From the NCBI GenBank assembly GCA_010015585.1, contig ML975151.1: DNA of 64,000 bases, one strand, 5' to 3'. A program made the translations under genes and the position numbers. The DNA is from Eremomyces bilateralis CBS 781.70 (Eukaryota). Shown here one piece after another: positions 3,193 through 58,614 of the stretch. Position 1 is the first letter of the stretch, and the number at the start of each line of letters is the position of its first letter. The notes under the pieces are model-generated. The model was not told the origin of the DNA, ran no database searches, and saw nothing but the letters and a program-made list of their open reading frames with translations.

Positions 3193-3307
3193 GCTGCGGT
3201 GGCCGAGTGGTTAAGGCGGCAGATTTAAGTTATTGCCCTTTTGGGCGATGGCATTGAAATAAAACCTGCTGGAGCAGTCCACGCGAGTTCGAACCTCGTC
3301 CGCAGCA
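3193..3307 (+). tRNA. tRNA-Leu(UAA) with a 34-nt intron (about 3230-3263)
   Basis: Acceptor stem GCTGCGG/CCGCAGC with discriminator A, D arm GCCGAGTGGTTAAGGC, anticodon TAA at 3226-3228, long variable arm TGGAGCAGTCCA, T arm GCGAG-TTCGAAC-CTCGT, followed by oligo-T Pol III terminator runs. Confidence 0.9.
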
Positions 3308-9102: not shown

Positions 9103-11015
9103 ATGGACCACCCTGAGCATTTCCAGCGACCGACGGAAACCAGGGGGAAGCGGAAGTTTATACTTTGCTTTGATGGAACAGGAAATAAGTTTTCAGGTAC
9201 GTCTTCGGACTCAAGTATTCTGAAAATATATCGTATGCTTGATAGAGAGGACGAGACTCAACTCCATTACTATCAGCCGGGAATTGGAACGTATGTTACT
9301 TCAGCAACTTTGTCACCCCCCTCCACGTACCAGAGTTTCAAGGCGTGGTATACCAAGCAAAAGGACTCTGCCGTTGGAACGAGTCTTTCCGATCATGTTA
9401 TGGGGGGGTACAAGGTGAGAACGGAGGAAAAGACAGGCATTGAGAAAAGTGTTGACAAATGAATAGTTCCTGATGAGGTATTATCTGCCAGGAGACAAGA
9501 TATATTTCTTCGGTTTCTCTCGAGGTGCATATACCGCCCGCTTTCTGGCGGAAATGCTTGACTACGTCGGCCTTATCACCACTGGGAATGAAGAGATGGC
9601 AGGATTTGCCTGGAAGACTTTTGAGAAATGGCAAATGCGCGAAGAGCGAACTGAAGAAGAGAAGAAAAAGAAAAGAGAGCTTCGCGAGTTCATGACTGCA
9701 TTCCGCGAGACCTTTAGTCGACCTGTGGAACCCCTGGAGTTCCTTGGTCTCTTTGACACAGTCAACAGCGTGCCGCGATTTGAGAACGCATTCATGCAGC
9801 GGTCCAAGTTTCCATATACGGCTCGTAGTTCGGCGAAAGTGATTCGGCACGCTGTTTCAATCGATGAGAGACGGGCTAAGTTTCGTCCGGATCTTCTTTA
9901 TCAACCGCCCGGAAAAGCAAGGCGGCATCACTTCTGGCACCACGACCGGCAGTTCGGTCATTTGTCTGCAGCAATCGAGGGGCGCCGCAAGGAAAGGAAC
10001 GGTGGAGAAGACTCGAAACTACAGCCGCAGGATAAATTTAGGCCAAAAAGGCGACCGAATCCGCCCCGGTTCAGCCCTCGCTCCAGCAGCATGCAGGTAC
10101 AGGAGAGGTTCCGCGATCCGTCCGAGGCCTCAGGGCTCGACTCCGCTAGCCGACGCTCGCAAGGCACCAGCTCAGCGTCCGCAACAGATGCAGTACATAC
10201 TGCAGCCGGGGAACAGGACATCAAGGAAGTCTGGTTCGTAGGATGCCATGGAGTAAGTGATTCGGGACTTGTTGCGGCACGGGTACTAACCGTTGTAGGA
10301 CCTTGGCGGAGGGTGGGCGATGGATCTCGACAAACCTGCACCTCTTAGTCATATTCCTCTAGTGTGGATGATAAATGAGGCAGAGCGGGCAGGTCTTAAC
10401 TTTGACGACACCAAGCTACGCAAACTCAACTGCGCACCTGATGTTGAGAGGCGTGAAGGACAACAGCAAAGCGGTGGGTCATCGGCTGCCATTGATGCTG
10501 CTGCTCCACCGGGGGTGTATGGGCTCGACTCGATCGTCCAATCTCACATCTATGACGACGAGAGGAGAGTTGAAGGTTCCGGCGAAGTTGATGGTTCTCA
10601 GTTCCACAGAATCCTGCATGAGCTCTCCATCGGGGGTCGCACCCATGATGCGTTACGCCGGAATAATGGCGCCTCCCTTATGTCGGTGCTCGGCTGGAAC
10701 ATCATGGAGTGGTTGCCGTTCCGAAGGATGGACCTGAAAGAAGATGAATCCTGGACCAGCATCTCATGGCCTTTGCCAAGGGGAGAAGTCCGAGACTTCC
10801 CGGATAATGCAGTTCTTCATAATAGCGTGGTTAAAAGAATGATGGCGGACGAGGCATACAGGCCTGGTAATGTAATTTGCGGGGGGGGCGGCAGAGGGAT
10901 GAGAAGAGCGCCAGAGAAATATGGCTATGGGAAGTGGAAAGTCCTTGAGAATGAGGGAGATCCCGTGTTGGAGTTGTACATCAGAGACGGACCTCGTCCT
11001 GCTTTGGAGGTTTAA
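9103..11015 (+). CDS. DUF2235 / Tle1-like alpha-beta hydrolase (phospholipase-like), two introns
   Basis: ILCFDGTGN, YYQPGIGT, FGFSRGAYTAR (nucleophile elbow), FLGLFDTVNSV, HAVSIDERR and EVWFVGCHGD are the characteristic DUF2235 motifs. Confidence 0.9.
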
Positions 11016-12383: not shown

Positions 12384-12566
12384 CAGTCAACCTTCGCTAT
12401 AACGATTGAATCCGCACAGGCGAATCCAATCGTTATAACGCGGATATCGCTAAAATGAATTTTCTTGGCAGCATTGATTGAGAATCCGTGCAGGGAATCT
12501 TATCGCTATAATGCGAATATCGCTGTAGCGGTAATCGTTATAGCGGTGCACGGCGGTGGTTGACTG
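12384..12566. mobile_element. MITE, about 183 bp, Tc1/mariner/pogo-type with TA target-site duplication
   Basis: TA|CAGTCAACCTTCGCTATAACGATT ... AATCGTTATAGCG(gtgcacggcggt)GGTTGACTG|TA. Internal repeats of ATCG(C/T)TATAA(C/T)G. Confidence 0.85.
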
Positions 12567-12820
12567 TATTGGGTATTTGTGTGGCTGCGGATGAACTTCG
12601 GCAATGGTGGCCTGACTGGGATGCAAATTCCAGTCAATCGCGTGCCAGCGCGTTTCAACATTCAGCTAGTCGCAAGTTCGCAACCCGCATTGTCTCCAGA
12701 AAGATAATCAGTGCTTATCGCATCAATAATAACTCTCGCATTTCGCTCAGCGCATCGTTGTTAGTCACATCGTTGATAGGCGCATCTCCGGCGCGTTGTT
12801 CTTCCAAGGAAGCTGTGATA

Positions 12821-15811
12821 ATGCCTCCACGTGCATCGGCACCATCGAAGCGGTCGGCACCATCGAAGCGGTCGGCTCAGGTTATTGACCTGACTGGCGA
12901 TGATGTGGAAAATGGCCACACTGCGAGACCAAAGAAAACGGCCAGAACAGCGAGTTCAGGATATGCATCAGGACTGCCTACCCCCCAAAGTACAGCTCCA
13001 TCTTCATCTCAGTCTTCAGCTCACGGAGGTCAACGCCGAGCTGCAGTCGGAAGCTCATCGTTCGCTGCACCGACAAGCCAGTATGGCGTGTCTGATGATG
13101 ATGAGGCCGATGAGCTCGTCGACTTGGTGCCCTTTGATCCAACCCAGGACTATTCTACTGCATCATTCATCCTCTATGGATCGCTTCAAACGAAGATCGT
13201 CGGGTGTCGATACTATACTGGAGTGACGACTCTAGGCGAGATGACCCTTCTCCGACGAGAGCCGGGGAACCAGTATGACCGAAACGCCATCGCGGCCCGG
13301 AATATGGAGGGCGAACAGATTGGACACATCCCTCGAGACATGGCGGCAGCGATCGCCAAGTACATGGACGATCGATCCCTCCAGGTAGAAGCGCAAATTA
13401 AAGGGAGGAAAGGTTACTACGAGTGCCCTATTCTGCTGGAGTTTTATGGGCCAAACGACCCTGAGAAGAGCGCGGCGATTACTGCGCGGATGAGACGTGA
13501 TGGGCTTCCGGTTGGGAACTTCGAAGAGTTCCACAGGACCAAGAAGGCACTCGAAAAAGCGGCTGCGAAGCAGGCTACTGACCGGGCACGCGTGGCTGCG
13601 ATGAATGGAGACTCGAGTCTACCTGTCGGTGGTTCTTTCCAAGTCCCAACTGCTGCTCCCACTCTGGCCTCAATTATGGAAGAAAGTGAGAAATACAGTG
13701 CAAGAGGCATTGATGAAGTTGTGAAGACATTTGGAGTCGGCACCGATGATCTTGAGAATATGCCCATGGCGGAGCAGCCAGCTGAAATCGCCACAAAAAT
13801 GCTGCCATACCAGCTACAGGTAAGCCAGGCGACTGATTAGAACCGGACTGCAAACGGACACTAATATTCTCCAGGGTCTCCAATGGCTGCTCGACAAGGA
13901 AAGTCCGAAACTACCGCCAAATACAGACGACGTGGTTCAACTCTGGAGGAAGCATCCAACTCAACCGGGCATGTTTTTAAACATTGCCACGACATTCGCA
14001 GTGAAAACCCCCGGCCTCATGAGTGGTGGCATTCTGGCTGATGACATGGGACTTGGGAAAACTTTGCAAATCATTTCTCTGATCATGTCAGACCCGCAGC
14101 GGATAAACTCCCCATCCAAGTCCGCCGGGCCGACACTCATATTGTCGCCTCTGAGCGTAATGAGCAACTGGACCGGACAGATCAAACACCATGTAAAGGA
14201 AGATTCCGCTCTGCGTGTGCTGACTTATCACGGAACGAACAGAAAGGTTCTTCTGAACTCTAAGACGATTGAGGACTATGATGTCGTCATCACGACTTAC
14301 GAGACTGTCATGTCGGAATATTGGTCCTCACAGGAGAATGTACCGCGTGTGAAAGGACTTTACGCTATCAATTGGAGGCGTATCGTTCTTGATGAAGGGC
14401 ATAACATCCGCAACCCTCAAGCGAAGCGTGCTGTGGCAGCTTGTGCGCTTATTGCGCAGTCGCGATGGGTCTGCACCGGCACGCCAGTGATCAACAGCTT
14501 GAAAGATTTGTATTCCATCATCAAGTTCTTACGCTTGTCAGGCGGCCTCGACCAGTTCGAAGCCTTCAATGGTAGGATCATACGTCCAGTCAATGCCGGT
14601 GATGGGGTCGGATATCGTCTACTCCAATCATTGATGCGGAGCATCTGTTTGCGCCGCAACAAAGAGATGAAATTTGTCGATCTGCGAATTCCTGAGCTCA
14701 CGGAATACGTTCACAAGATCCAGCTCTCCGATCACGAGAAAACCAAATATGATGGCCTAGCGTATGTAGTCAATTTCATGTTTCTGACCATGTACTGACC
14801 GATCACAGCTCTGAGGCCAGTGGGGCATGGAAGGAATTCGAGAACACATCTGGACAAGAGGCTGCAAACGCATACCGCCATGTCCTCGAGGTTCTCCTCC
14901 GCCTTCGACAGGTCTGCAACCACTGGAGGCTTTGCGGCGACAGGAGAATCAAGGACATCCTTGACAAGATTGAGAAAGACAAGACGGTCGAACTGACATC
15001 GGAAAACTGTGGTGCGCTGCGCAAAATGCTACAGTTGAGCATCGAGTCCCAAGAGGACTGCCCTATTTGCCTCGACACGCTTAAAGAGCCCATCATCACA
15101 GCCTGCTCTCACATTTACTGCTACGCTTGCATCGAGCGCGTCATCGACACGCAGCACAAATGCCCACTCTGTCGTGCTGATATTCAGTCTCCCCAACACG
15201 TTGTTCGCGCGGCCAAAGACGAGTCGCTCGATTCGACGCCCACTACTTTTGATGAGGATGAGTCGAGCAGTAAGATTGAAGCACTTCTCTCCATTCTCGA
15301 AGCCACACGGGTACGGCCAGGCGAGCCAACTAAGACCGTGGTGTTTAGTCAATGGACCTCATTCCTCAACCTTCTGGAGCCACACCTTCAGAAACGAAAT
15401 ATCAAATTCTGCCGCATCGATGGCACCATGTCTTCGACGCTTCGCGACAACGCGCTGGAGCGGCTCGCATCCGATCCAGAGTGCACGATTATGCTCGCGT
15501 CGCTAGCCGTCTGCTCGGTTGGGCTGAACCTCGTGGCAGCCTCTCAAGTCATCTTGGCGGATTCTTGGTGGGCGCCAGCGATCGAAGACCAAGCGGTTGA
15601 TCGTGTGCACCGGCTGGGCCAGAAGCGGGAGACCACCGTCTGGAGGTTGGTGACAGAAGGGACGGTTGAAGAGAAGGTGTTACAGATCCAAGCAAATAAA
15701 CGGGAGTTGATGAGATTGGCGGTGGCCGAAAAGGAGGGGAAGAAGAAGAAAGGAGGCAGGACGGCACGGTTGCAGGATATTCAGATGCTGTTGGGGACAC
15801 AGCAGGCGTAG
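12821..15811 (+). CDS. SNF2-family helicase / RING E3 ligase with HIRAN domain (HLTF/Rad5-like), two introns
   Basis: HIRAN (TKIVGCRYY...REPGNQYDRNAI), ILADDMGLGKT, DEGH, RING CPICLD..CSHIYCYAC..CPLCR, and helicase C-terminal motif EDQAVDRVHRLGQ. Confidence 0.93.
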
Positions 15812-38632: not shown

Positions 38633-39035
38633 CAGTGATGCGTTCAGTTCTTCTCATTCATCCTGGGACCCTAAGTGGTCATTCATAATCGTCTTGCATG
38701 TACGTTTTTCTTGTCTTTGCTTTTTGTCAGTCAGTGATGTAGTCAGTTGTTTTCCTTTATCCCGTGGACCCTGAGTGGTCATCGCCGCCTCGCATGTATG
38801 TTCTTCTTCCATTTGCTTCTTGCCAGACAGAGATGCGTTCAGGTTTTTGCCTTCATCCTTTGAATCCTGAGTGGTCATCACCGCCTTGTATGTTCACCCT
38901 CCTCCTTTTTTGTCAGACGGTGATGCGTTCAATTCTTCTTCATGGCGGGATCTGGTGAGTAATCTTTTCATGTATGTTCGCCTTCCATTTTGTTCTTGTC
39001 AGACAGTAATATGCGCTCAGCGTTTCTCTTCATCA
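38633..39035 (+). repeat. Degenerate tandem repeat, about 4.3 copies of an 86-99 bp unit
   Basis: Unit CAGTGATGCGTTCAG...CCTGAGTGGTCATC...GTATGTT...TTGTCAGA starts at 38633, 38732, 38828, 38918 and 39004. Confidence 0.85.
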
Positions 39036-40279
39036 GTTACCAACACCGCTACAAGGCAAGCACTCCATCCATTCACTGTTGAGTTGCCAATACACGTTGT
39101 CCTCGTCGTCGTGCACTGCCGTTCCACCTCGTCATCTCCACTACATCACAGTCCTCTCATCGCTGACTTCCAGTCCACTCTACCTTCGCGAGCCTTCCTC
39201 GCTGCGCCCGGCTTCTCAGCCACAGGTCAGTTCCTTCTGTTCTCCCCCCCCGCAATGTGTGAATCTGACATTAAAATAGGAATTTCGTCTCGTCTTGTCA
39301 GACAGTTTGGTTCCCATTGGTGGTCGCCCAGGGACTTCGCCCCCGCCAGTCAGTATCAACCCTGCGATTTTGCTTTTTCTCACTGGCTCAGCCGTCCAGA
39401 TTCCTCATCATCCTCTCTAGTTTGGTTCCCATCGAAGGTCACCTAGTCGAAGGCCACCTAGGAACTTCGTCGCCATCGGTGAGTAGCATCGCCACACTTC
39501 TGCTTATCCTTGCTGACTTAACGTCCAGATTCCTCACCGTTCTCTCTCGCTCGAGCCCAGGGATGGGGCGGGTACTCATCATCTTCGGACATCATCACTT
39601 CTGGCTCTGAGCAAGCTTCCAACCTCACCGGCCTTCAATCTCATCGGCTTCCAACCTCATCGGACGATCCTCCAACAGCCGCCTCCACTAGTATGTGTGC
39701 TCCATGTGCAATTTTCCCCTACAGTTCACTATTAACACTATCTCAGCTTCCACCTCCACATTACCTCACAGCTCGATCCACGCGACAGGGGCGGGTACTC
39801 ATCACGGTTTTCAACTTTTCGGACCTCGAGCACAATAAATTTTTGTCACACTTTATTTGACACCCAGCGACTTTGGCTTTGCCAGTTTGTGACCACGGTC
39901 TTCTGTTTCCTGACTTCTTGTAGCCAACATGCTCCCAGCTTCCTTGCGTCTTCCATCATTTCGGCGTCTTGCAATCGTCATCTGCATTCGTCATCCTCAT
40001 TTCGGTATCCTCTTCGTCGTCTGCATTCATCAGCTTTCGGCATCTTTGTTTCGCGACTGCATTCATCACTGCTTTCGCCATGCTTATTTCGACATCCTCT
40101 TTCGTCGTCTGCCTTTCAGCATCGTTTTGGCATCCTCAATTTCGCTCCTGGATTTCAGCGTCTTTATTTTGGCGTCCTGATTTCCTTGCCTATTTCCAGC
40201 GCTTGCATCCTCATTGGGCACCTGCTTTCGGTATCATTCCGATGTGCTTACATCATCAGTCAATTTAGTCGCATCTCTG

Positions 40280-40511
40280 AATCTCCTCATCTCGGTTTTC
40301 TTCTCACGGCTACTGCATCTCGGTTTCTTTATCGCGGCCTCCTCATCATGGCCTCTTCATCGCGGCCTCCTCGCCATGGCCTCTTCCTCATGGTCTCCTC
40401 ATCTCAGTTTTTTCATCATGGCTCCTAATCACGGCATCCTCATCATGGGCTCCTCTTAACGGCCTCCTCATCACGGCCTCCTCACGGTCTCCTCATGGCC
40501 TCCTCATCTCA
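40280..40511. repeat. Low-complexity minisatellite, about 15-bp unit (GGCCTCCTCATCA(C/T))
   Basis: Repeated cggcctcctcatcat / ggcctcttcatcgc / ggcctcctcgccat / ggcctcctcatcac. Confidence 0.75.
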
Positions 40512-43830: not shown

Positions 43831-43967
43831 TGGCTGCGTAGCGTATTAGTAAAACCCAATCGCGAAGCGGGCTGAAAATTACTCAGCTTTACGCCCGTTG
43901 TGCCTAAAACTTCGGTCTCAGGAGCATCAACACAATCAATAGTCATGTCGTCTCAGCCTATTGCCTG

Positions 43968-46094
43968 ATGTTGTCTGTACCGCTTTCAATGCTCCCATCC
44001 GCCTCAACGACCTCCGATTCCTCTAATGATGCATCCGACGATGATGAGCTCGCTACCGAATTTATATGGAGAGCTCGATCCGATGCGACATCCGCTGCAG
44101 AAGCGGACCCAGAGCCCCCATTAATGCCATCTCCAGCTGCACCGGCAGGCTCTTCCGCTGGATGTCTCAACTGCCCAACTGGACGCCCTGGAGAGGCCTC
44201 TTATATAGCTATTGATCCGGCTACTAAGATGCCTCTGGGCCAAACTGGAACGTCGTTTCAGAAGATGGAGGGATACGTCTCCTATTATCACAATCCGGAG
44301 GCGCTGCTTGATCTCCCTATTGGCGTTCAAGGCCCCATTAATGCTACAGACACCCAGAATGCTCTATGTGGAAATCCTAGCTGTATCGGCTGCGGCATTT
44401 CCCATCGTGATGGCCAGTCCCTAGATCCATTGCTTTATAATCGATATCCATCGTCCTTCGAAGAGCTTGTAGAGCGATGGGATCTCCCGCTTGTACTCTT
44501 CTCGCAGATATTCGATCAGAAGCTATATACGACGATCGCAGAGCACTCCAACAAGTACGCCCAAAAGCAACAAATCCCGGTTAGCCCTGTTACCGCAGGC
44601 CATATCCAGATATGGCTAGGTCTAGTCCTCTATATGGGGACCTTCAACATCGCATCTCGACGAGATCTATGGAGCAGACATGGCCAGCAACGTCTCCATT
44701 GTATCTCCAGATTTATGTCCTTTACTAGGTGGAATGATATCAAACGAATCATCCATCTTAGTGACCCCGAAACGGAGCCTAATCCGCACTCAGTCTTCGA
44801 GAAAGTCCAGCCGATTGCTTCGATTTTAAATGCTCGCTTTCAGCGTGTATATATCCCTTCAAACTATATTTCAATCGACGAGATCATAGTCAAATTCACA
44901 AGGCGCCCGAAAGAGATCGTCTCGAAACCTATCCCCGTGGACTATAAGATCCTGGCCCTCGCCGATAGAGGCTATGTTTATAGCTTTCTCTTTACCCCAG
45001 GGAATAGTTATGAGACTGCTGGAAAGAAAGATACATCATCAATCCATGAAGTTGAATATCAACCTCCCTTTGGGTGCGAAGATCTTGAGCTTACAGCCGC
45101 ATCAAAGGCTGTGGTTACCCTCGCAGCCTCTCTGCCCGTTGACCTCCGCCGCTTCGTTATCTTTATGGATAACCATTTCACCAACGTTCGCTTGCTCTCC
45201 GTTCTTCGAAGGATGGGGGTTGGGGCCTGTGGCACGACAAGTGCAGCCTATAAGGAATATCCTTTACAGCACTTTCAAGTCGGGAAGGACGATTGCAAAT
45301 GGCCGCTTCAGAAGCAGGATTTCCTCTGTATACGTGATGTTGCTAGCCTGCTATGGAAGGATCGAGTGCTCGTTCGCTTTCTTTTCACCGTTTTCAGCCC
45401 AGACGAAAATGGTCTGGTACTGAGGAAGCGCCCGGCGACTGGTGCCGCAGCGTATCAGAGAGAACTTGATCAAATCTACCCCCCAGGGGCCCATGAAGCG
45501 GAGGTTCTACAGCCTAAAGCAGCCATAATATACAACGCCTTTATGGGCGATGTAGATATCGCTGACCAGCGCCGAGCTTACTCCACGTCCCATCTCATCG
45601 GCCATAAGACATGGCATCCTATTCTCTTCTGGATACTCGATACAGTCGCTTCGAACGCCCATATCCTCGGTACATGGCAGTTTCAAAAGATGAACGTCAA
45701 ATACCTACAAAACCTTAAGGATTTTCGTCTACAGCTCGCCTGGAACATGGTCATTAAAGGTACCTCGATCGACCATGGCTCCCGGTCGGTACAGGGCTTC
45801 AATGAGCAAGATGGACCTCAGATTCGAGGTAACCGAGGTCTTCGGAGAGCTGGAAACTCATATATATCGCGAAATACCGACTTTCCGTACTTTGCGACGC
45901 TCAGAAATGGAGCTCATCGCCCAGTACGGATTCCGAACGGCAAGCGGCGCTGGTGTTGGTTTTGTAGGTGGAAAAAGCGCAAAGATGACCAAGTTAAGGA
46001 CCACAGGACGTTTCTCTACTGTGAGGTCTGTGGAGAGGCGTTTCCGCTCTGTACCACTTGTATAGAGCCATTCCATCAACAGCGACCTAGCTAG
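43968..46094 (+). mobile_element. piggyBac transposase (DDE_Tnp_1_7), 708-codon open frame; candidate right end at about 46385
   Basis: WLGLVLYMG, MSFTRW..IKR, ISIDE, FMDNHFT, WKD, YNAFMGDVDIADQ, and C-terminal cysteine-rich CWFC..CEVC..LCTTC..FH. Candidate right end ...CAGCATGGTCAGGGG|TTAC. Confidence 0.88.
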
Positions 46095-53140: not shown

Positions 53141-55252
53141 TAGGTTTTCCCCACCTCGTGCACGGCCCCACACAGTGCACGAAATGATATCGCGACATTC
53201 AATATGTAATTAGTTATATCTTTACCAAAATGAATCAGATTGAGCTCGCTCTTGCTGCGTTGGAGTTGGAGGAGAAACCTAATTATACTAAGACTGCAAA
53301 AGAGTATGGAATCGACCGTACAACATTATCTAGGAGACATCGCCAAAAAACCACCTCTAGGCAAGATGCGGACTTGAACAGAGGAAAACTCCATGGATTC
53401 CAGGAGAAGAAACTTGTTTCGTATATCAACGACCTCTGTAGGCGTGGTTTTCCGCCTACTACTACAATGGTACGGAACTTTGCCTGCGATATTGCGAAAC
53501 AAGACATAGGCAAGAACTGGGTCTCTAGATTCGTGGAGCGGCATGAGACGATGCTCGACGGGAGATATCTCAACGTTATCGAGTCCTCCAGGACCCGGGC
53601 GGATAAGGAGCAAGACTATCGTGATTTCTACGCCTTATTAGCCCAAAAGATTACGGAATACGACATTGATCGGGAGAATATGTACAATATGGATGAAAAG
53701 GGCTTCCTTATGGGGATCATGACCAAGATGAGACGGATCGTCTCAAAGGCGGTTTTATCGCAAAATAAGAGCCTAGGGGCCACGACGGATGGTAATCGTG
53801 AGTGGATTACCATTCTTGCATGTATCTGTGCGGATGGTTCCTGGTTACCGCCCGGTCTAATTTACCAGGCGGTTTCCGGTAATCTCCAGGACTCTTGGCT
53901 CCAGGATTTTGACACGGAGAACCACCAGGCCTTTTTTGCTTCATCTCCATCAGGATGGACGAACGATGATCTAGGATTCCATTGGTTGACTACCGTTTTT
54001 GAGCGGTATACGAAGCCGAAGGCGAGACGGAGATATCGTCTCTTGGTTATCGACGGGCACGGTAGCCATATCAATATGAGATTCCTGGATTGGTGCCACG
54101 AAAACCGTATTTTGGTATGCTGGTACCCTCCACATACCACTCATCGCCTACAACCGCTCGACGTTAGCCTGTTTTCACCTCTTGCGACCTATTATGGGCA
54201 GGAACTCAATACCTTCATATCTGAGTGCCAGGGACTCTGTTCTATCACGAAACGAGAGTTTTTTCGCTTATTTTGGGCGGCATGGCATAAAGCTTTCACT
54301 CCTGCCAATATTCGAAGTGGTTGGGAAAAAACAGGACTGGATCCACTAGATCAGTCCGTGGTCCTACAGGCTATCGGGATTAGCGAAACAACCTCTCGAC
54401 CGGGCTCAAATGCATCATCGGCAGATTCTCACCTCTCGTCAACGGACTGGAGACAGGTGAAACGGATTATCCATGGTGCTGTAGGTGATGCGGTTACTTC
54501 GGAGTCGAAAAAGCTTCTCAGCTCGGTCGCACAGCTTTCAACCGATATTACCCTCTTACGAGCGGAAAACCAGGGTCTACGAAAGGCTATCATCAACGAG
54601 AAAAAGAAACGTAAGAGGGCGAAGCCGTTATTTGAAGAGTTACGTGCTGAAACTGGTATAAAGGCACAGTTTTTCAGTCCCTCTAAGATCCAGAGAGCTC
54701 GCGAACTTCAAACACAGAGAGAACAGGAAAAGGTCGATCAAGAGGCACAAAGACAACAGGATAAGGTAGAGAGAGCACAACGCAAGATAGAGAAGGAAAA
54801 AAAGATGATAGAAAACCGTCTCCAACGAGATGAGGCACGTACAAGGAGGGCTACGGAGAAGACCCTTTTGGCGAAAGAGAGGCAGGTTAGTAAGGAGGCT
54901 CGATTAGCCACCCTCCAGATCCGCAGGGAGTCTAGATCCTTTAGAACCACCAAGAGAAAGTCTATACAGGTGGTTTCAAGGCGAAGTCTACAGCCTCACG
55001 TTATCCCCAGTGGTCAAGAAGATACAGAGGGGGGTCCTTCGTCTGGGCGCCCACGGCGTGAGAAACGCCTCCCAAAACGCCTACAGGACTACGAATTAGG
55101 TGGGAAATAAGGCTCTATCTACACAGACCTCACCACCAGCTTTTTCTACATAATTTACTTTTTTATGGGTGCGAGTAGCCTCAAAAACATATCCAAAATA
55201 TCTAGTGAAATCGTGCATTGAGTGGGACCGTGCACGACCCCGGGAAAACCCG
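53141..55252 (+). mobile_element. pogo/Fot1-like DNA transposon, full length, with TA target-site duplications
   Basis: Imperfect about 42-bp TIRs (TAGGTTTTCCCCACCTCGTGCACGGCCCCACACAGTGCACGA versus reverse complement CGGGTTTTCCCGGGGTCGTGCACGGTCCCACTCAATGCACGA) flanked by TA at 53139-40 and 55253-54. Confidence 0.92.
53230..55110 (+). CDS. pogo/Fot1 transposase, 626 aa, uninterrupted
   Basis: N-terminal HTH (TAKEYGIDRTTLSRR), CENP-B-type HTH (GKNWVSRFVERH), and DDE_1 motifs YNMDEKGF, IDGHGSH and LQPLDV. Confidence 0.93.
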   Translation: MNQIELALAALELEEKPNYTKTAKEYGIDRTTLSRRHRQKTTSRQDADLNRGKLHGFQEKKLVSYINDLCRRGFPPTTTMVRNFACDIAKQDIGKNWVSRFVERHETMLDGRYLNVIESSRTRADKEQDYRDFYALLAQKITEYDIDRENMYNMDEKGFLMGIMTKMRRIVSKAVLSQNKSLGATTDGNREWITILACICADGSWLPPGLIYQAVSGNLQDSWLQDFDTENHQAFFASSPSGWTNDDLGFHWLTTVFERYTKPKARRRYRLLVIDGHGSHINMRFLDWCHENRILVCWYPPHTTHRLQPLDVSLFSPLATYYGQELNTFISECQGLCSITKREFFRLFWAAWHKAFTPANIRSGWEKTGLDPLDQSVVLQAIGISETTSRPGSNASSADSHLSSTDWRQVKRIIHGAVGDAVTSESKKLLSSVAQLSTDITLLRAENQGLRKAIINEKKKRKRAKPLFEELRAETGIKAQFFSPSKIQRARELQTQREQEKVDQEAQRQQDKVERAQRKIEKEKKMIENRLQRDEARTRRATEKTLLAKERQVSKEARLATLQIRRESRSFRTTKRKSIQVVSRRSLQPHVIPSGQEDTEGGPSSGRPRREKRLPKRLQDYELGGK

Positions 55253-55356: not shown

Positions 55357-57397
55357 TCAGCGCCGACGCTGTGGTGTAGATGGGTATACGGGACAATTAA
55401 AACTCATGTGTCCAAAGTCTTCGCCTAAATGTTTCAGAAAGCACAGTGTTAGAGCTTATTGTCCTATAGTGATAATTCCACAGTAGAAAAGCAGCATCAC
55501 ACAGCTGCCTTCCGTTCTTGGGGTACTTACATCGGTAACATTGTGTCTTTGGACAGCTGGGGGAAGAGTGCCCGGTTTGCTTGCACCTAGTGCAGGTGGA
55601 TGTCAAGCGGGACTGGAAAGAACTGGCAGCTTGCGGCGAACGAATGGGTGACGCGACACCGAAGCGAAGTGTATCAAGGAGGGACGGCGACGCAGCGGTC
55701 CGCGAAAGACCAGGAGCGGTTGTCCTAGTAAGACATCGTGGAGGCGTGAGCGGCGGTGATTGTGGATAGGCCGATGACGGGGCCAGCGCCTTTCTTGTTT
55801 GCGAAAATCCAAGGCGAGCCGTGTATTCAGTCTGTTTGAGGGCTGCCCCCGATCGTCAACAAGTTGAATCGGCTTGAGATCGCGAGGTCTTCCTCGGAGG
55901 CCCGCCTCCGTGTGCTGCCGGCATGCTGTGCCATCCCCCATTCAAGGTGGCCAGCAGCAAGTCTGAACGCCCGAGCGAGCTCGTTTCTGTCAATATCGTA
56001 GACCATTCGGCCCTGGCAAGTATAAGCGCCGTTAAGGATGCGCACCAAACTCAGGAAACTGAGTCGCAAGTTATACTGGAATCCAGATTGGTGCTTGAAT
56101 GGTCCAAGACGGAGAAGGCTTTTGTTCAAACCAGCAGAGGTGAATAGACCTTTCCCTCCTCTCTCGACTTGAAAGGGTGCTCTAGCTGCGCGGAGAGAGC
56201 GTAGGAACTCATTGCATCTCTTCTCCACGTTCCGTCTGAGATCTCGTATATCGCGCTCCTCTCGTTGGCGGAGCTGCTCAAACCCTTTGTCCTGTAGACG
56301 GTCGCCTCCGCGATCCAGAAACTTGATAATTTTGACGAGGATCAGCAGACAGTTGGGGAAGAGGACGTTATATCGCTCCTTCAATATGAGGTCGTAGAGA
56401 TCGTCGTTCGTCATGTCATCGTATGCACCAGATTTTAGGGAGTCCAACATCCTCGTTACATAGTCCATATATATCTGAAATCGCTCGCGTTGAAAGTCGT
56501 GCTTAGTCCACCTTGGCTGGTCCTGCTTATCTTAGGGACAAGAGCAATGTTAGCAGTCAATCTCCACAGATTATGACAAGAAAATAAAGAATCGGAAACA
56601 GTCTCCTAACCTTCTATGTCTTTCCGGACTATTGCAGTACAGTTTTCGCGCACATCAGTCATCCAAGGACTCCTTTTCCAGGTGCCATTGGCTCGACGGA
56701 ATGCTTGCATTGCCTCAATAATGAAGAGGCTCCGCAATGCGCTTTTGTCTTCGAGATAGTTAAGCGCATAGCTCGGATGGAAGCCGTTCACACAGGTGTA
56801 ACGTTGGCCTTGGACCGTGACTCGATAATCGCGGGTGCGTCCTATTCCGATGCACTGGAAGCCTTTATACTTGGTAGAATGCGGGCTGCGATAACAGCAG
56901 AACACCACATCTGGCTGCTTCTGTTGGATCATCTCAAGGAATATGGCATATGCTTCATTGAGTTCTTCCTAATATTCGTCCAGGCTTTTGCTCACAGGGA
57001 TCTTGTGGAAGGGGAACGCGTCGAAGCAGCTTATCTTCTCCAGGCCACACCCAGTAACTGTCTTGCAGACTTCGTCCACGGCGTCCAAAGTATCGCAGTC
57101 CTTCACGGTTTGGTGGTGATCGGAGAAATAACGTTGATGCTCTGCAGGCTGCTGAAGGACAATCACGACACCGCCTTTCGTCTCCGGCATGGCTAGCCAC
57201 TTTGCAAATTTGGCCTCCTTGTCGGAAATATCTTCTCCATTATTTTGAAGACAGCGGCCATAACTCTCAATTGCTCGAGCATGGCCTCCAGGACTAACGA
57301 AGGGATCTGGGGTTGCAAGTCTAGTACCGAGAAGGGGTTCAAGCCGATGATCAATTGGAACCCCCAGACACGAACCCGGCAATCGAACATCCGCCAT
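55357..57397 (-). pseudogene. Uracil-DNA-glycosylase-like domain + helical region + two CCHC zinc knuckles; 2 introns, one nonsense codon, one frameshift
   Basis: VVIVLQQP, CFDAFPF, KQPDVVFCC and NGFHPSYALN resemble UDG-fold motifs; CTRCKQTGHSSPSC and spliced CYRCEDFGHMSFNC are CX2CX4HX4C. Introns 56610-56531 and 55530-55425; in-frame TAG at 56971-56969; frameshift near the C run 55846-55850. Confidence 0.65.
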
Positions 57398-58145
57398 AAT
57401 CCCTATGTAGATACCCGTGAACTACTGGAAATAGGGTTCAGACGAATCCTCTCTTTCCTTAGCGCCGGCATGGTGCCGTATATGTAGCCGATGGGATCTT
57501 AGACGAGGCTGGCAGCGTAGATGGCGGCGGCGCAGCAAAATGCAGGCTGCCTTCTCTGTTCATCCACGTCTCAGTCAAGACTAGGATTCGCTCACGGCGT
57601 CAAGCAGGCCAACAGATTTAGGAGAGAAAAGCCCGCATGAGGACGCGTTCGGAATGATTGGCTGTGATTGACGATAATGGATTCCTATACCAATCAGCGC
57701 AGGCGATACGCCAACTTAGTTGATAGATGATTGCCCAGTGACTCCCTCGAAAAGTGCAGAACACCCAGCCTCCACATGGTAAGGGTTAGCAGCGGGTGAT
57801 TGGGTTGACCTATTGCAAGGTACCTTGAACTGAATCTATGTTTACAAAAGGACAAAAGGCGCAGCCGGTTTTGCAAACTACTGAGTCGATTGAGTATACC
57901 GTGGACAGGTACTGTACGACAGCTCACACTACAGGGACGGGAGCGAGGTGGGGATTTTGACAGTCTGGGACTATACAAAAGGAAGGTTAAGAATAATCAG
58001 CGCGACAGTTGGGTGAAGTTAATCTGCACAACCCATGGCCGGCCCAGCCCGTAATGGCAGCCCGTAATGGTTCGGTCCGCAGGCACTACGGTAGAGCACC
58101 CTAGAGTAACCCCCGCAATCCGAATTGACAGTTTGGAGTATTTCT

Positions 58146-58614
58146 ATCGATAAGTCCAACAACCCTGAGCTGTCGAAGGCCATCAACTCTGTTTCGATGG
58201 TACCGCGATGCGACGCGCTGCTACCTCTATCCGTCGGATGTATCAGAGCCAGCCCCTAATACAAACAACTCGCATTCGCCACCTTAGGAGACGGACTTTC
58301 GGCGAAGTCGATGGTTTAGGAGAGGCTGGACGCTTCAAGAGCTGATCGCTCCTATGGTAGTCGAGTATTTCTCTAAAGACCGAGTGTGGCTAGGAAACAA
58401 GAGATCGCTCGAACGGCAGATTCGCGAAATCACCGGAATTCCTGCCGCGTCGAGGAGGAGCATTCTCTCAACTTAGCGTAAAAGAACAACTGTTATGGGC
58501 TCAAGGTCGCGAGACAACGGAAGGCGGAAGACCAAGCATACTCATTGCTGGGGATTTTCGGGGTGAAGCATGGCAATGATTTACGGGGAAGGAATAGACG
58601 AAGCGTTCCGACTC
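58146..58614 (+). pseudogene. HET-domain (heterokaryon incompatibility, HET-E-like N-terminus) remnant, 5'-truncated and frameshifted
   Basis: IDKSNNPELSKAINS/FRWYRDATRCY, FRRSRWFRRGWTLQELIAP, EDQAYSLLGIF and IYGEG. Confidence 0.85.

Follow-up and report, generated by a model that had tools for sequence, protein, structure and literature searches.

What did the DNA between positions 55,357 and 57,397 of the stretch analysed here once encode, and what might its intact relatives do? The stretch (64,000 nucleotides (nt) of Eremomyces bilateralis CBS 781.70, GenBank assembly GCA_010015585.1, contig ML975151.1; hereafter the window) presents on its minus strand at this place four open reading frames (ORFs) which, from stop to stop, cover 56969-57421, 56606-56968, 55827-56531 and 55397-55855. 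The original prediction, made from the letters alone, had joined them into one spliced and recently inactivated gene linking a domain like that of uracil-DNA glycosylases (UDGs) to two CCHC zinc knuckles, an architecture it did not recognise from UNG1 or TDG. Our reading is that the window holds a dead but still spliced copy, that the intact relatives are probably base-flipping DNA glycosylases acting on a cytosine-type base, and that the knuckle-bearing subfamily spreads horizontally; to these statements taken jointly we assign a probability of roughly 0.6.

The locus is one gene of three exons carrying two lesions (Table 1), as colinearity with homologues and a spliced contig both bear out. 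The intact protein of Lindgomyces ingoldianus (P0005; 615 amino acids (aa)), used as a tblastn query, aligned over its residues 1-615 in the colinear pieces 57397-56612, 56531-55779, 55834-55526 (in another frame) and 55422-55360, exon 3 being 81% identical to the P0005 C-terminus; the same search found no second copy of the gene within the 64-kb window. The stretch was also found in three public sequencing runs. A 1,414-nt contig of one of them (X3) skips exactly 56531-56610 and 55424-55529, whereas a DNA contig of another (X1) retains both intron stretches, and therefore the two introns are real and used; the first is in addition 84-92% identical to the intron of the metagenome locus L004. 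X3 was taken for RNA on the sole support of its intron-less contig, none of these runs being recorded as RNA, and it comes under the same organism label from another sample and another study, although the strains may be identical. The locus is transcribed and spliced. One unbroken X3 contig extends from within exon 1 across the ATG to over 600 nt upstream of it, and continues for another 283 nt past position 58000; this upstream extension (57398-58000 and on) might represent a long 5' leader, overlapping transcription of the broken HET-like gene next to the locus, or DNA in the run.

Both lesions are small. An in-frame TAG stands at codon 143, where the homologues have E or K, and one extra A in a run of A residues shifts the reading frame by +1, so that the first frame ends in ...SPQ and the second resumes with QTEY, the counterpart in Westerdykella (P0002) reading SPQQTKY. 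The one-base slip anticipated by the original prediction is thus present, but it lies at 55837-55835, about 10 nt downstream of the proposed 55846-55850, and the switch of frame in the tblastn alignment falls between 55834 and 55779. The X3 and X1 contigs differ from the window by 0 letters; therefore neither the TAG nor the extra A is an error of this assembly alone. That the joined gene might be an artefact, whether of chance ORFs or of an assembly error that made the stop and the frameshift, has nothing beyond these two lesions to recommend it and is refuted by the colinear homologues (E 6e-149) and by spliced and DNA contigs of two studies with 0 differences, which leaves it a practically negligible chance. 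The window copy encodes a fragment of 142 aa at most and is non-functional. Its inactivation was recent, judging by the presence of only two lesions, by a dN/dS of 0.25 against an environmental copy 89.9% identical in DNA, and by the persistence of transcription and splicing. Both knuckles keep the C-X2-C-X4-H-X4-C spacing of Pfam zf-CCHC (PF00098); knuckle 1, scored as a single unspliced copy, reached E 0.0067 and 16.9 bits, under the cut-off of 20.8, and the intact P0005 reached 36.5 bits over two stretches.

The relatives show what the intact gene looks like. A search with P0001, the first 264 aa with the stop written as X, found 22 matching proteins of 468-664 aa among 478 candidates: those of Westerdykella ornata (P0002, 84% identity), of a Trizodia metagenome-assembled genome (82%), of L. 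ingoldianus (81%) and three of Lojkania enalia (about 81, 77 and 77%, all three on one 152-kb contig), followed by four environmental proteins at 46-49% and by a clade of Leotiomycetes, Sordariomycetes, Eurotiomycetes and one Pleosporales species at 37-40%. At least one full CX2CX4HX4C knuckle is present in 11 of the 22, and the C-termini of P0005 and P0006 are the same as that of the spliced window gene (...CYRC-x-FGH-x-SF-x-CPVYPSTPQRRR). Several knuckle-less gene models end or diverge directly after a C-x2-C, and to judge from their sequences they look like read-through of the intron inside the knuckle, so that the proposed union of both domains in one gene stands for this subfamily, as does its unlikeness to UNG1 or TDG. 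Eight models from several classes (P0013, P0014, P0016 and P0018-P0022) have a common alternative C-terminus, ...ELLHLRP-x-RPLV..., right after the knuckle or replacing it; this looks like a gene-model error that recurs in public annotations, again through an intron in a knuckle being read as coding, and knuckle-bearing members are therefore probably undercounted.

With phmmer, run exhaustively against 1.84 billion representatives, the family grew to 255 clusters of 50% identity at E<=0.001 (141 at 1e-10 and 20 at 1e-30). Among the 93 sequences of our family alignment (A2), which are only ~25-35% identical to each other, a Pfam zf-CCHC match was obtained for only 6. All of 21 related metagenome loci carry the UDG-like domain (21/21), and in 12 of the 21 it is succeeded by the helical middle domain, encoded either within that ORF or by the following one on the same strand. 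Many proteins of 255-300 aa that seem to stand alone are therefore probably gene calls limited to exon 1. What the family conserves as its core is the UDG-like plus the helical domain, and only the window's subfamily has added the knuckles. Intact relatives of that subfamily, of about 550-660 aa, consist of an N-terminal motif, a UDG-superfamily domain, a helical domain, a Ser/Pro linker and at least two CCHC knuckles. For the middle domain no known fold or family was found, the ESM Atlas giving no usable feature match, generic helical bundles staying at a template modelling (TM) score <0.5 and profile matches in PDB being to designed helical bundles at E >=0.013. All named members belong to the Ascomycota, and an ESM Atlas cluster is 100% Eukaryota. 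Searches with one or two short peptide patterns, which are weak evidence of absence, gave 99 matches in prokaryote genomes and 128 in viral contigs, with 0 confirmed in either.

Directly upstream of distant members, on the same strand, a gene for a DUF7923 plus CCCH zinc-finger protein was observed at L009:2024-3334, L015:4635-5945 and L011:2844-4301; L009 and L015 give identical Pfam coordinates and scores, and these are therefore counted as two independent cases. A zinc-finger neighbour in one branch and fused knuckles in another may be meaningful or may be mere synteny; nothing on DUF7923 was found in the literature. HET-domain genes also adjoin the distant members in L009 and L015.

A structure model and profile comparison show that the N-terminal half has a UDG fold, with family 4 and UdgX as its nearest relations, in agreement with the divergent UDG-like domain originally proposed. 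AlphaFold2 (AF2), run with A2, returned a local confidence score (pLDDT) of 94.9 and a predicted TM score (pTM) of 0.92, with 233 of 264 residues at or above 90. When this model was compared with PDB by Foldseek, all of the 48 listed rows were UDG-superfamily chains (family 4, UdgX, TDG, SMUG1 and vaccinia D4), the best being the family-4 UDG of Sulfolobus tokodaii (4zby, E 1.3e-5), and the top matches of VIA-align were also UDG-superfamily structures. In a viral structure library the top matches were phage PolA proteins, alongside phage UDGs; in the ESM Atlas, 23 of 30 feature matches lay in PF03167-bearing sets, with a TM score of 0.56 to a type-4 UDG cluster. For the profile comparison, 28 family-4 UDG domains, all with G-E-x-P-G, were gathered from Pseudomonadota genomes with Pfam PF03167. 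Aligned to them by hhalign, the 93-sequence profile reached a probability of 86% (E 5.1e-6, score 44.0, 98 columns), against a score of 11.9 for the reversed alignment and of at most 22.7 (probability at most 3.3%) for 20 column shuffles; alignment to the single E. coli Ung and Mug sequences was non-significant (probability 0.1-0.2%). The ordered motifs singled out by the original prediction (GVVIVLQQP, CFDAFPF, KQPDVVFCC and FHPSY) are all present and match the most conserved columns of A2, a coincidence far beyond chance.

The positions of the putative pocket are near-invariant across the family. In A2, P84, directly after the strand 77-81, is kept in 92/93 sequences, D126 in 90/93, K160 in 87/93, H207 in 90/93, P208 in 91/93, S209 in 86/93, N204 in 80/93 and Q83 in 71/93, and L81, a Leu in place of the motif-A Gly, in 90/93. 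In the confident part of the hhalign alignment, motif B is kept as F-H-P-S-Y and pairs with the family-4 Y-H-P-A-Y, P-D-V-V pairs with P-k-v-I, and D126 pairs with the base-reading Asn of the family-4 Y-I-x-N. All four aligned cysteines of the Fe-S cluster are shown by this alignment to be replaced, two of them by F/Y130 and A149 in its confident part and the C-x2-C pair by K63 and K66 in a low-confidence stretch. The definitions of the family motifs follow the abstracts of PMC5449639, PMC4787834 and PMC10359453. Outside the canonical UDG core lies an N-terminal motif, C10-L-x-[IV]-[AP]-[IV]-D16-H17-R18-L, of which C10 is kept in 82/93, D16 in 89/93, H17 in 85/93 and R18 in 88/93 sequences and for which known UDG families offer no counterpart. 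Over 260 codons the window copy and L004 differ with a dN/dS of 0.25 at a dS of 0.24, which shows purifying selection on this close pair. A pocket near-invariant at such low family identity, together with this dN/dS, argues for a working pocket rather than a relic.

The nature of the substrate is suggested by the acidic residue. In passages of PMC11289083, changing Asn to Asp at the base-reading position (hUNG N204D, EcUNG N123D) switches excision from uracil to cytosine, and according to those of PMC11078745 the glycosylase Brig1, acting on alpha-glucosyl-hydroxymethylcytosine, carries E147 in the place that is usually taken by Asn in UDGs (N82 in the S. tokodaii enzyme). Given an Asp at this position and these two precedents, a cytosine derivative (cytosine, 5-methylcytosine (5mC) or similar) is by analogy the more likely base of the intact relatives than uracil. 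These proteins would be base-flipping, probably monofunctional DNA glycosylases, with the leaving pyrimidine stabilised by the motif-B His and the protein held on single-stranded nucleic acid by its CCHC knuckles.

Several observations weigh against an enzyme of this superfamily. Motif A, on alignment, has no canonical Gly, nor can a catalytic residue of acidic or amide type be placed in it with confidence, and L81-Q82-Q83-P84 pairs with G-E-A-P in a relaxed, low-confidence extension of the hhalign alignment only. The sole NCBIfam match of P0001 was TIGR00758 (UDG_fam4) at E 0.017, with 14.9 bits for a cut-off of 125.3; a Pfam UDG (PF03167) match was obtained for 0/93 members at E 0.01, and sequence-profile searches of PDB chains with alignments A1 and A2 found no UDG. 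Moreover, some UDG-fold domains, such as the N-terminal domains of phage PolA, are to our knowledge not known as glycosylases.

A rival view is that the UDG-fold domain is a non-enzyme module for nucleic-acid binding or scaffolding in a gag- or nucleocapsid-like accessory protein of an unrecognised DNA transposon, whose knuckles and helical domain would coat or chaperone DNA or RNA. The CCHC tail and the helical, possibly oligomerising middle resemble nucleocapsid and ORF1p layouts, even if the middle domain matches the coiled coil of LINE-1 ORF1p only weakly and without significance (E 0.28); motif A is non-canonical; polymerase-fused UDG-like folds stand among the top viral structure matches; and among the DNA transposons of fungi there is one of several genes, Styx, that carries a gene with a CCHC domain, as described in passages of PMC10853768. 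On the other hand, D126 and H207-P208-S209, which matter for base recognition and leaving-group stabilisation, are near-invariant at the low identity levels of this family, 87 of the 93 members have no Pfam zf-CCHC match, the core being the UDG-like plus helical domain, and no transposase stands beside the 21 related loci. We consider this view unlikely, though it deserves to be kept in mind, and retain that of a glycosylase.

Among known systems, family 4 UDGs (Thermotoga maritima, 1l9g; S. tokodaii, 4zby) have the same order of elements, from beta1 with motif A through beta2 and beta3 (P-D/k-V-V) to motif B (H-P-S/A-Y). The abstract of PMC5295032 reports family 4 and 5 UDGs to be active on single- and double-stranded DNA. 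The fungal family differs from family 4 in its motif A (L-[Q/L]-Q-P instead of G-E-A/G-P-G), in having Asp (90/93) where family 4 has Asn at the end of beta2, and in carrying K63, K66, F130 and A149 in place of the four 4Fe-4S cysteines; unlike family 4, it also has the extra N-terminal motif, the C-terminal helical domain, knuckles in one subfamily, and it is eukaryotic with introns. As the fold is family-4-like but four defining features of family 4 are missing, we place these proteins in the superfamily as a family of their own, so far without a name. What the fungal family has of motif A in common with UdgX of Mycobacterium smegmatis (6ail) is only the Gln in third place, the motif being GEQPG there according to the abstract of PMC10359453 and L-x-Q-P here. 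Unlike UdgX the family is devoid of the Fe-S cysteines, and in the sequence comparison no equivalent was identified of the KRRIH R-loop whose His cross-links to the abasic site. The anti-phage protein Brig1, also of the UDG superfamily, combines an acidic residue for Asn with modified cytosine and, in passages of PMC11078745, with activity on single-stranded DNA oligonucleotides; it is likened to the fungal family by residue position alone, being bacterial, single-domain, defensive and of known substrate, and the PADLOC models, a library that predates Brig1, gave no match to the fungal family. The hUNG N204D and EcUNG N123D variants have the same Asp, an equivalence that goes through profile alignment to family 4 and not through superposition, but belong to family 1 and, unlike the fungal proteins, have an intact GQDPY motif A. 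Styx, an IS3EU-derived element of the Dothideomycete Zymoseptoria with a CCHC-domain gene beside its transposase, is likened by description only; the passages of PMC10853768 report it only within Zymoseptoria and do not mention a UDG-like domain, and no transposase partner was found at the loci of the fungal family.

The comparison of identity levels favours horizontal spread among Pezizomycotina as the best reading of how the gene came to be distributed, a reading that draws on those levels and not on tree topology. The window gene is 81-84% identical to its Pleosporales homologues, whereas two neighbour genes reach at most 63% to any other genus, and this is what favours horizontal spread. 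Of these neighbours, the PhoD gene matches two E. bilateralis proteins at 93% and 77% identity but reaches only 54% in Westerdykella, 59% in Lojkania and 59% in Lindgomyces (at most 62% in any other genus), and for the kinase-like gene just past a pogo-like element no other genus exceeds 63%. To the 1-kb environmental contig of L004 the window gene is 88% identical in protein and 89.9% in DNA, the intron included. The sister clade spans four classes at 65-93% protein identity, the copies of Monosporascus and Leptodontidium being 90% identical over 546 aa, and of two Talaromyces copies that are 77% identical to each other one is 87% identical to a Monosporascus copy. From one clade to another only 35-47% identity is left, on stems of 0.7-2 changes per site, and therefore the gene is not a slowly evolving one.

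The same data bear on whether this is an ordinary, vertically inherited and well-conserved host DNA-repair gene of which the window copy simply decayed. Its used spliceosomal introns are in keeping with such a gene, as are the ordinary fungal genes found beside distant members at the 21 metagenome loci (BTB, MFS, APH and HET, for example) and an approximately unbiased (AU) test that did not reject monophyly of the one class tested. This explanation is very unlikely, as it would have to accommodate 81-88% identity to other orders against at most 63% for the two neighbours, 65-93% across four classes with the discordant Talaromyces pair, the low identity and long stems between clades, a patchy distribution (22 matches) and three copies on one Lojkania contig.

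Horizontal spread has points to answer as well. The sister clade is star-like, and the AU test just mentioned gave p 0.166 for Sordariomycetes monophyly; copy number per genome looks low, with one contig per protein cluster; and no carrier was found, neither a transposase nor a captain having turned up for the gene among the scanned window ORFs. In particular, none of 44 ORFs scanned in the 64-kb window, which a larger element could exceed, encodes a DUF3435 captain tyrosine recombinase of Starship type, and no transposase partner stands beside any of the 21 related loci. No terminal repeats were found between the 5' end of the block shared with L004 and either the 3' flank or the DNA past the pogo-like element, and the downstream neighbour gene was not co-transferred. 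The terminal 16-mer of the shared block is without a partner in the window, having 2 matches there for 0.66 expected, of which the second lies 34 kb off with 3 mismatches. The similarity to L004, whose 1-kb contig is the only DNA-level comparison for the ends of the block, begins abruptly 17 nt upstream of the ATG. Given this abrupt start, the absence of repeats and a neighbour that did not travel along, the block shared with other fungi may comprise hardly anything beyond the gene.

Together with the near-invariant Asp, that start of similarity and the neighbour left behind allow a bolder proposal, in which the knuckle proteins are mobile cytosine or 5mC glycosylases that form a small selfish unit crossing classes. 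Such a unit might erase cytosine-based marks, that is, intermediates of repeat-induced point mutation (RIP) or methylation, on itself or its carrier, or base excision at a target site might start its own copying. We hold this to be a long shot. Even more doubtful is that the gene is the first ORF of a non-LTR retrotransposon, a class of element whose ORF1 typically ends in CCHC knuckles. Knuckles at the C-terminus past a helical region, several copies in one genome and cross-taxon similarity would suit such an origin; what makes it highly improbable is that two introns are kept and spliced, the first of them conserved in L004, that no reverse transcriptase (RT) or endonuclease ORF lies downstream in the window, which there holds only the pogo-like element and the kinase-like gene, and that no RT stands beside the 21 related loci.

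The pogo/Fot1-like DNA transposon on the plus strand ends 107 nt downstream of the pseudogene stop. Its inverted repeats of 40 nt match at 33 of 40 positions in local alignment, its uninterrupted frame matches Pfam DDE_1 (1.8e-25) and HTH_Tnp_Tc5 (3.1e-08), and it may still be active. Since the gene begins at 55357, outside these repeats, it is not cargo of this element, contrary to the suggestion that it rode on the neighbouring transposon. A 21-nt inverted repeat pair at 53148 and 57934 was rejected, as it proved to combine a piece of the pogo repeat with a match by chance. The original prediction had further placed the gene in a transposon island affected by RIP, and had offered, as speculation, a counter-defence to RIP or an anti-transposon effector as roles that the gene might have. 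The neighbourhood is indeed rich in transposons (piggyBac-like and pogo-like) but shows no visible RIP mutation, and RIP is not borne out for the gene: its TpA/ApT of 0.66 and (CpA+TpG)/(ApC+GpT) of 1.27, at 51% GC, match the values of the core genes over the first 36 kb (0.60 and 1.24), and only the pogo-like element comes out borderline (0.86 and 1.00). RIP is marked by a high first and a low second index, the usual thresholds being ~0.89 and ~1.03, respectively. Substitutions relative to the close environmental copy show no strong excess of C>T or G>A.

Elsewhere, the first 36 kb of the window are core genome with ordinary fungal genes, a Rad5-like gene and a DUF2235-type hydrolase ORF among them. 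The ARAGORN program, run in bacterial mode, found no tRNA in the window, and Rfam gave one. The long ORFs within the degenerate tandem repeats encode low-complexity Ser/Pro/His-rich repeats, and upstream of the pseudogene short broken ORFs arranged head-to-head with it include the end remnant of a HET domain (Table 1).

Table 1. Coordinates of the pseudogene, its parts and other features of the window
Feature	Position	Strand	Remarks
Whole pseudogene	55357..57397	-	3 exons and 2 introns; 4 colinear tblastn pieces with P0005, spliced X3 contig
Start ATG	57397	-	sequence reading
Exon 1	56611..57397	-	conserved N-terminal motif CLGVPIDHRL and UDG-fold domain
N-terminal motif	57370-57341	-	P0001 residues 10-19
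UDG-fold domain in exon 1	residues ~36-240, helices up to 262		AF2, Foldseek, VIA-align, hhalign
Lesion 1, in-frame TAG	56969..56971	-	codon 143; also in X3 and X1 contigs
Intron 1	56531..56610	-	80 nt, GT..AG, phase 1; absent from X3 contig, present in X1 DNA contig
Exon 2	55531..56530	-	helical middle domain, Ser/Pro-rich linker, knuckle 1, first half of knuckle 2 (alignment A1)
Lesion 2, one extra A in A-run, +1 frameshift	55835..55837	-	after ...SPQ
CCHC knuckle 1, CTRCKQTGHSSPSC	55553..55594	-	sequence reading
CCHC knuckle 2, CYRC and EDFGHMSFNC	55540-55393	-	interrupted by intron 2
Intron 2	55425..55530	-	106 nt, GT..AG, inside knuckle 2; absent from X3 contig
Exon 3	55357..55424	-	remainder of knuckle 2 (..C EDFGHMSFNC), PVYPSTPQRRR, stop
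Stop TGA	55359-55357	-	sequence reading
Pogo/Fot1-like DNA transposon, outside the gene	53143..55250	+	inverted repeats 53143-53182 / 55211-55250; 640-aa uninterrupted frame
PiggyBac-type ORF	43908-46094	+	728 aa, uninterrupted; DDE_Tnp_1_7 E 1.2e-41
HET-domain end remnant	58288-58341	+	Pfam E 0.077, profile positions 131-146 of 146
Degenerate tandem repeats	38696-40506		periods 11-96 nt, 69-93% matches; GC skew to -0.30, AT skew to -0.35
tRNA	3193-3307	+	Rfam 43.3 bits; 115 nt, presumably with intron
T6SS_Tle1-like/DUF2235 hydrolase ORF	9467-10348	+	E 1.5e-56
Rad5-like gene	12512-15811	+	HIRAN, SNF2, RING and Helicase_C over three consecutive ORFs

A fungal UDG-like family with knuckles was not found described in the full-text literature, and PMC13451438, which reviewed DNA repair in fungi in 2026, names no such family in its passages on Starships or uracil. 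Models for it are likewise absent from Pfam, NCBIfam and PADLOC. The window gene belongs to a previously unclassified UDG-like family that is joined to knuckles in one subfamily, and the interest lies in its intact relatives, the window copy being a dead gene. If our reading is true, fungi would possess an unrecognised family of the UDG superfamily, of 255 clusters, with no Fe-S cluster, an altered motif A and an acidic base-reading residue, and this family would offer a natural scaffold beside the engineered cytosine-excising UNG variants used for base editing. Filamentous ascomycetes defend their genomes by cytosine methylation and by C-to-T mutation through RIP, and we know of no enzyme in filamentous ascomycetes or other Pezizomycotina that excises cytosine or 5mC. 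A cytosine glycosylase mobile between species, if real, would therefore be of immediate relevance to the way in which transposons and genome defence contend with each other.

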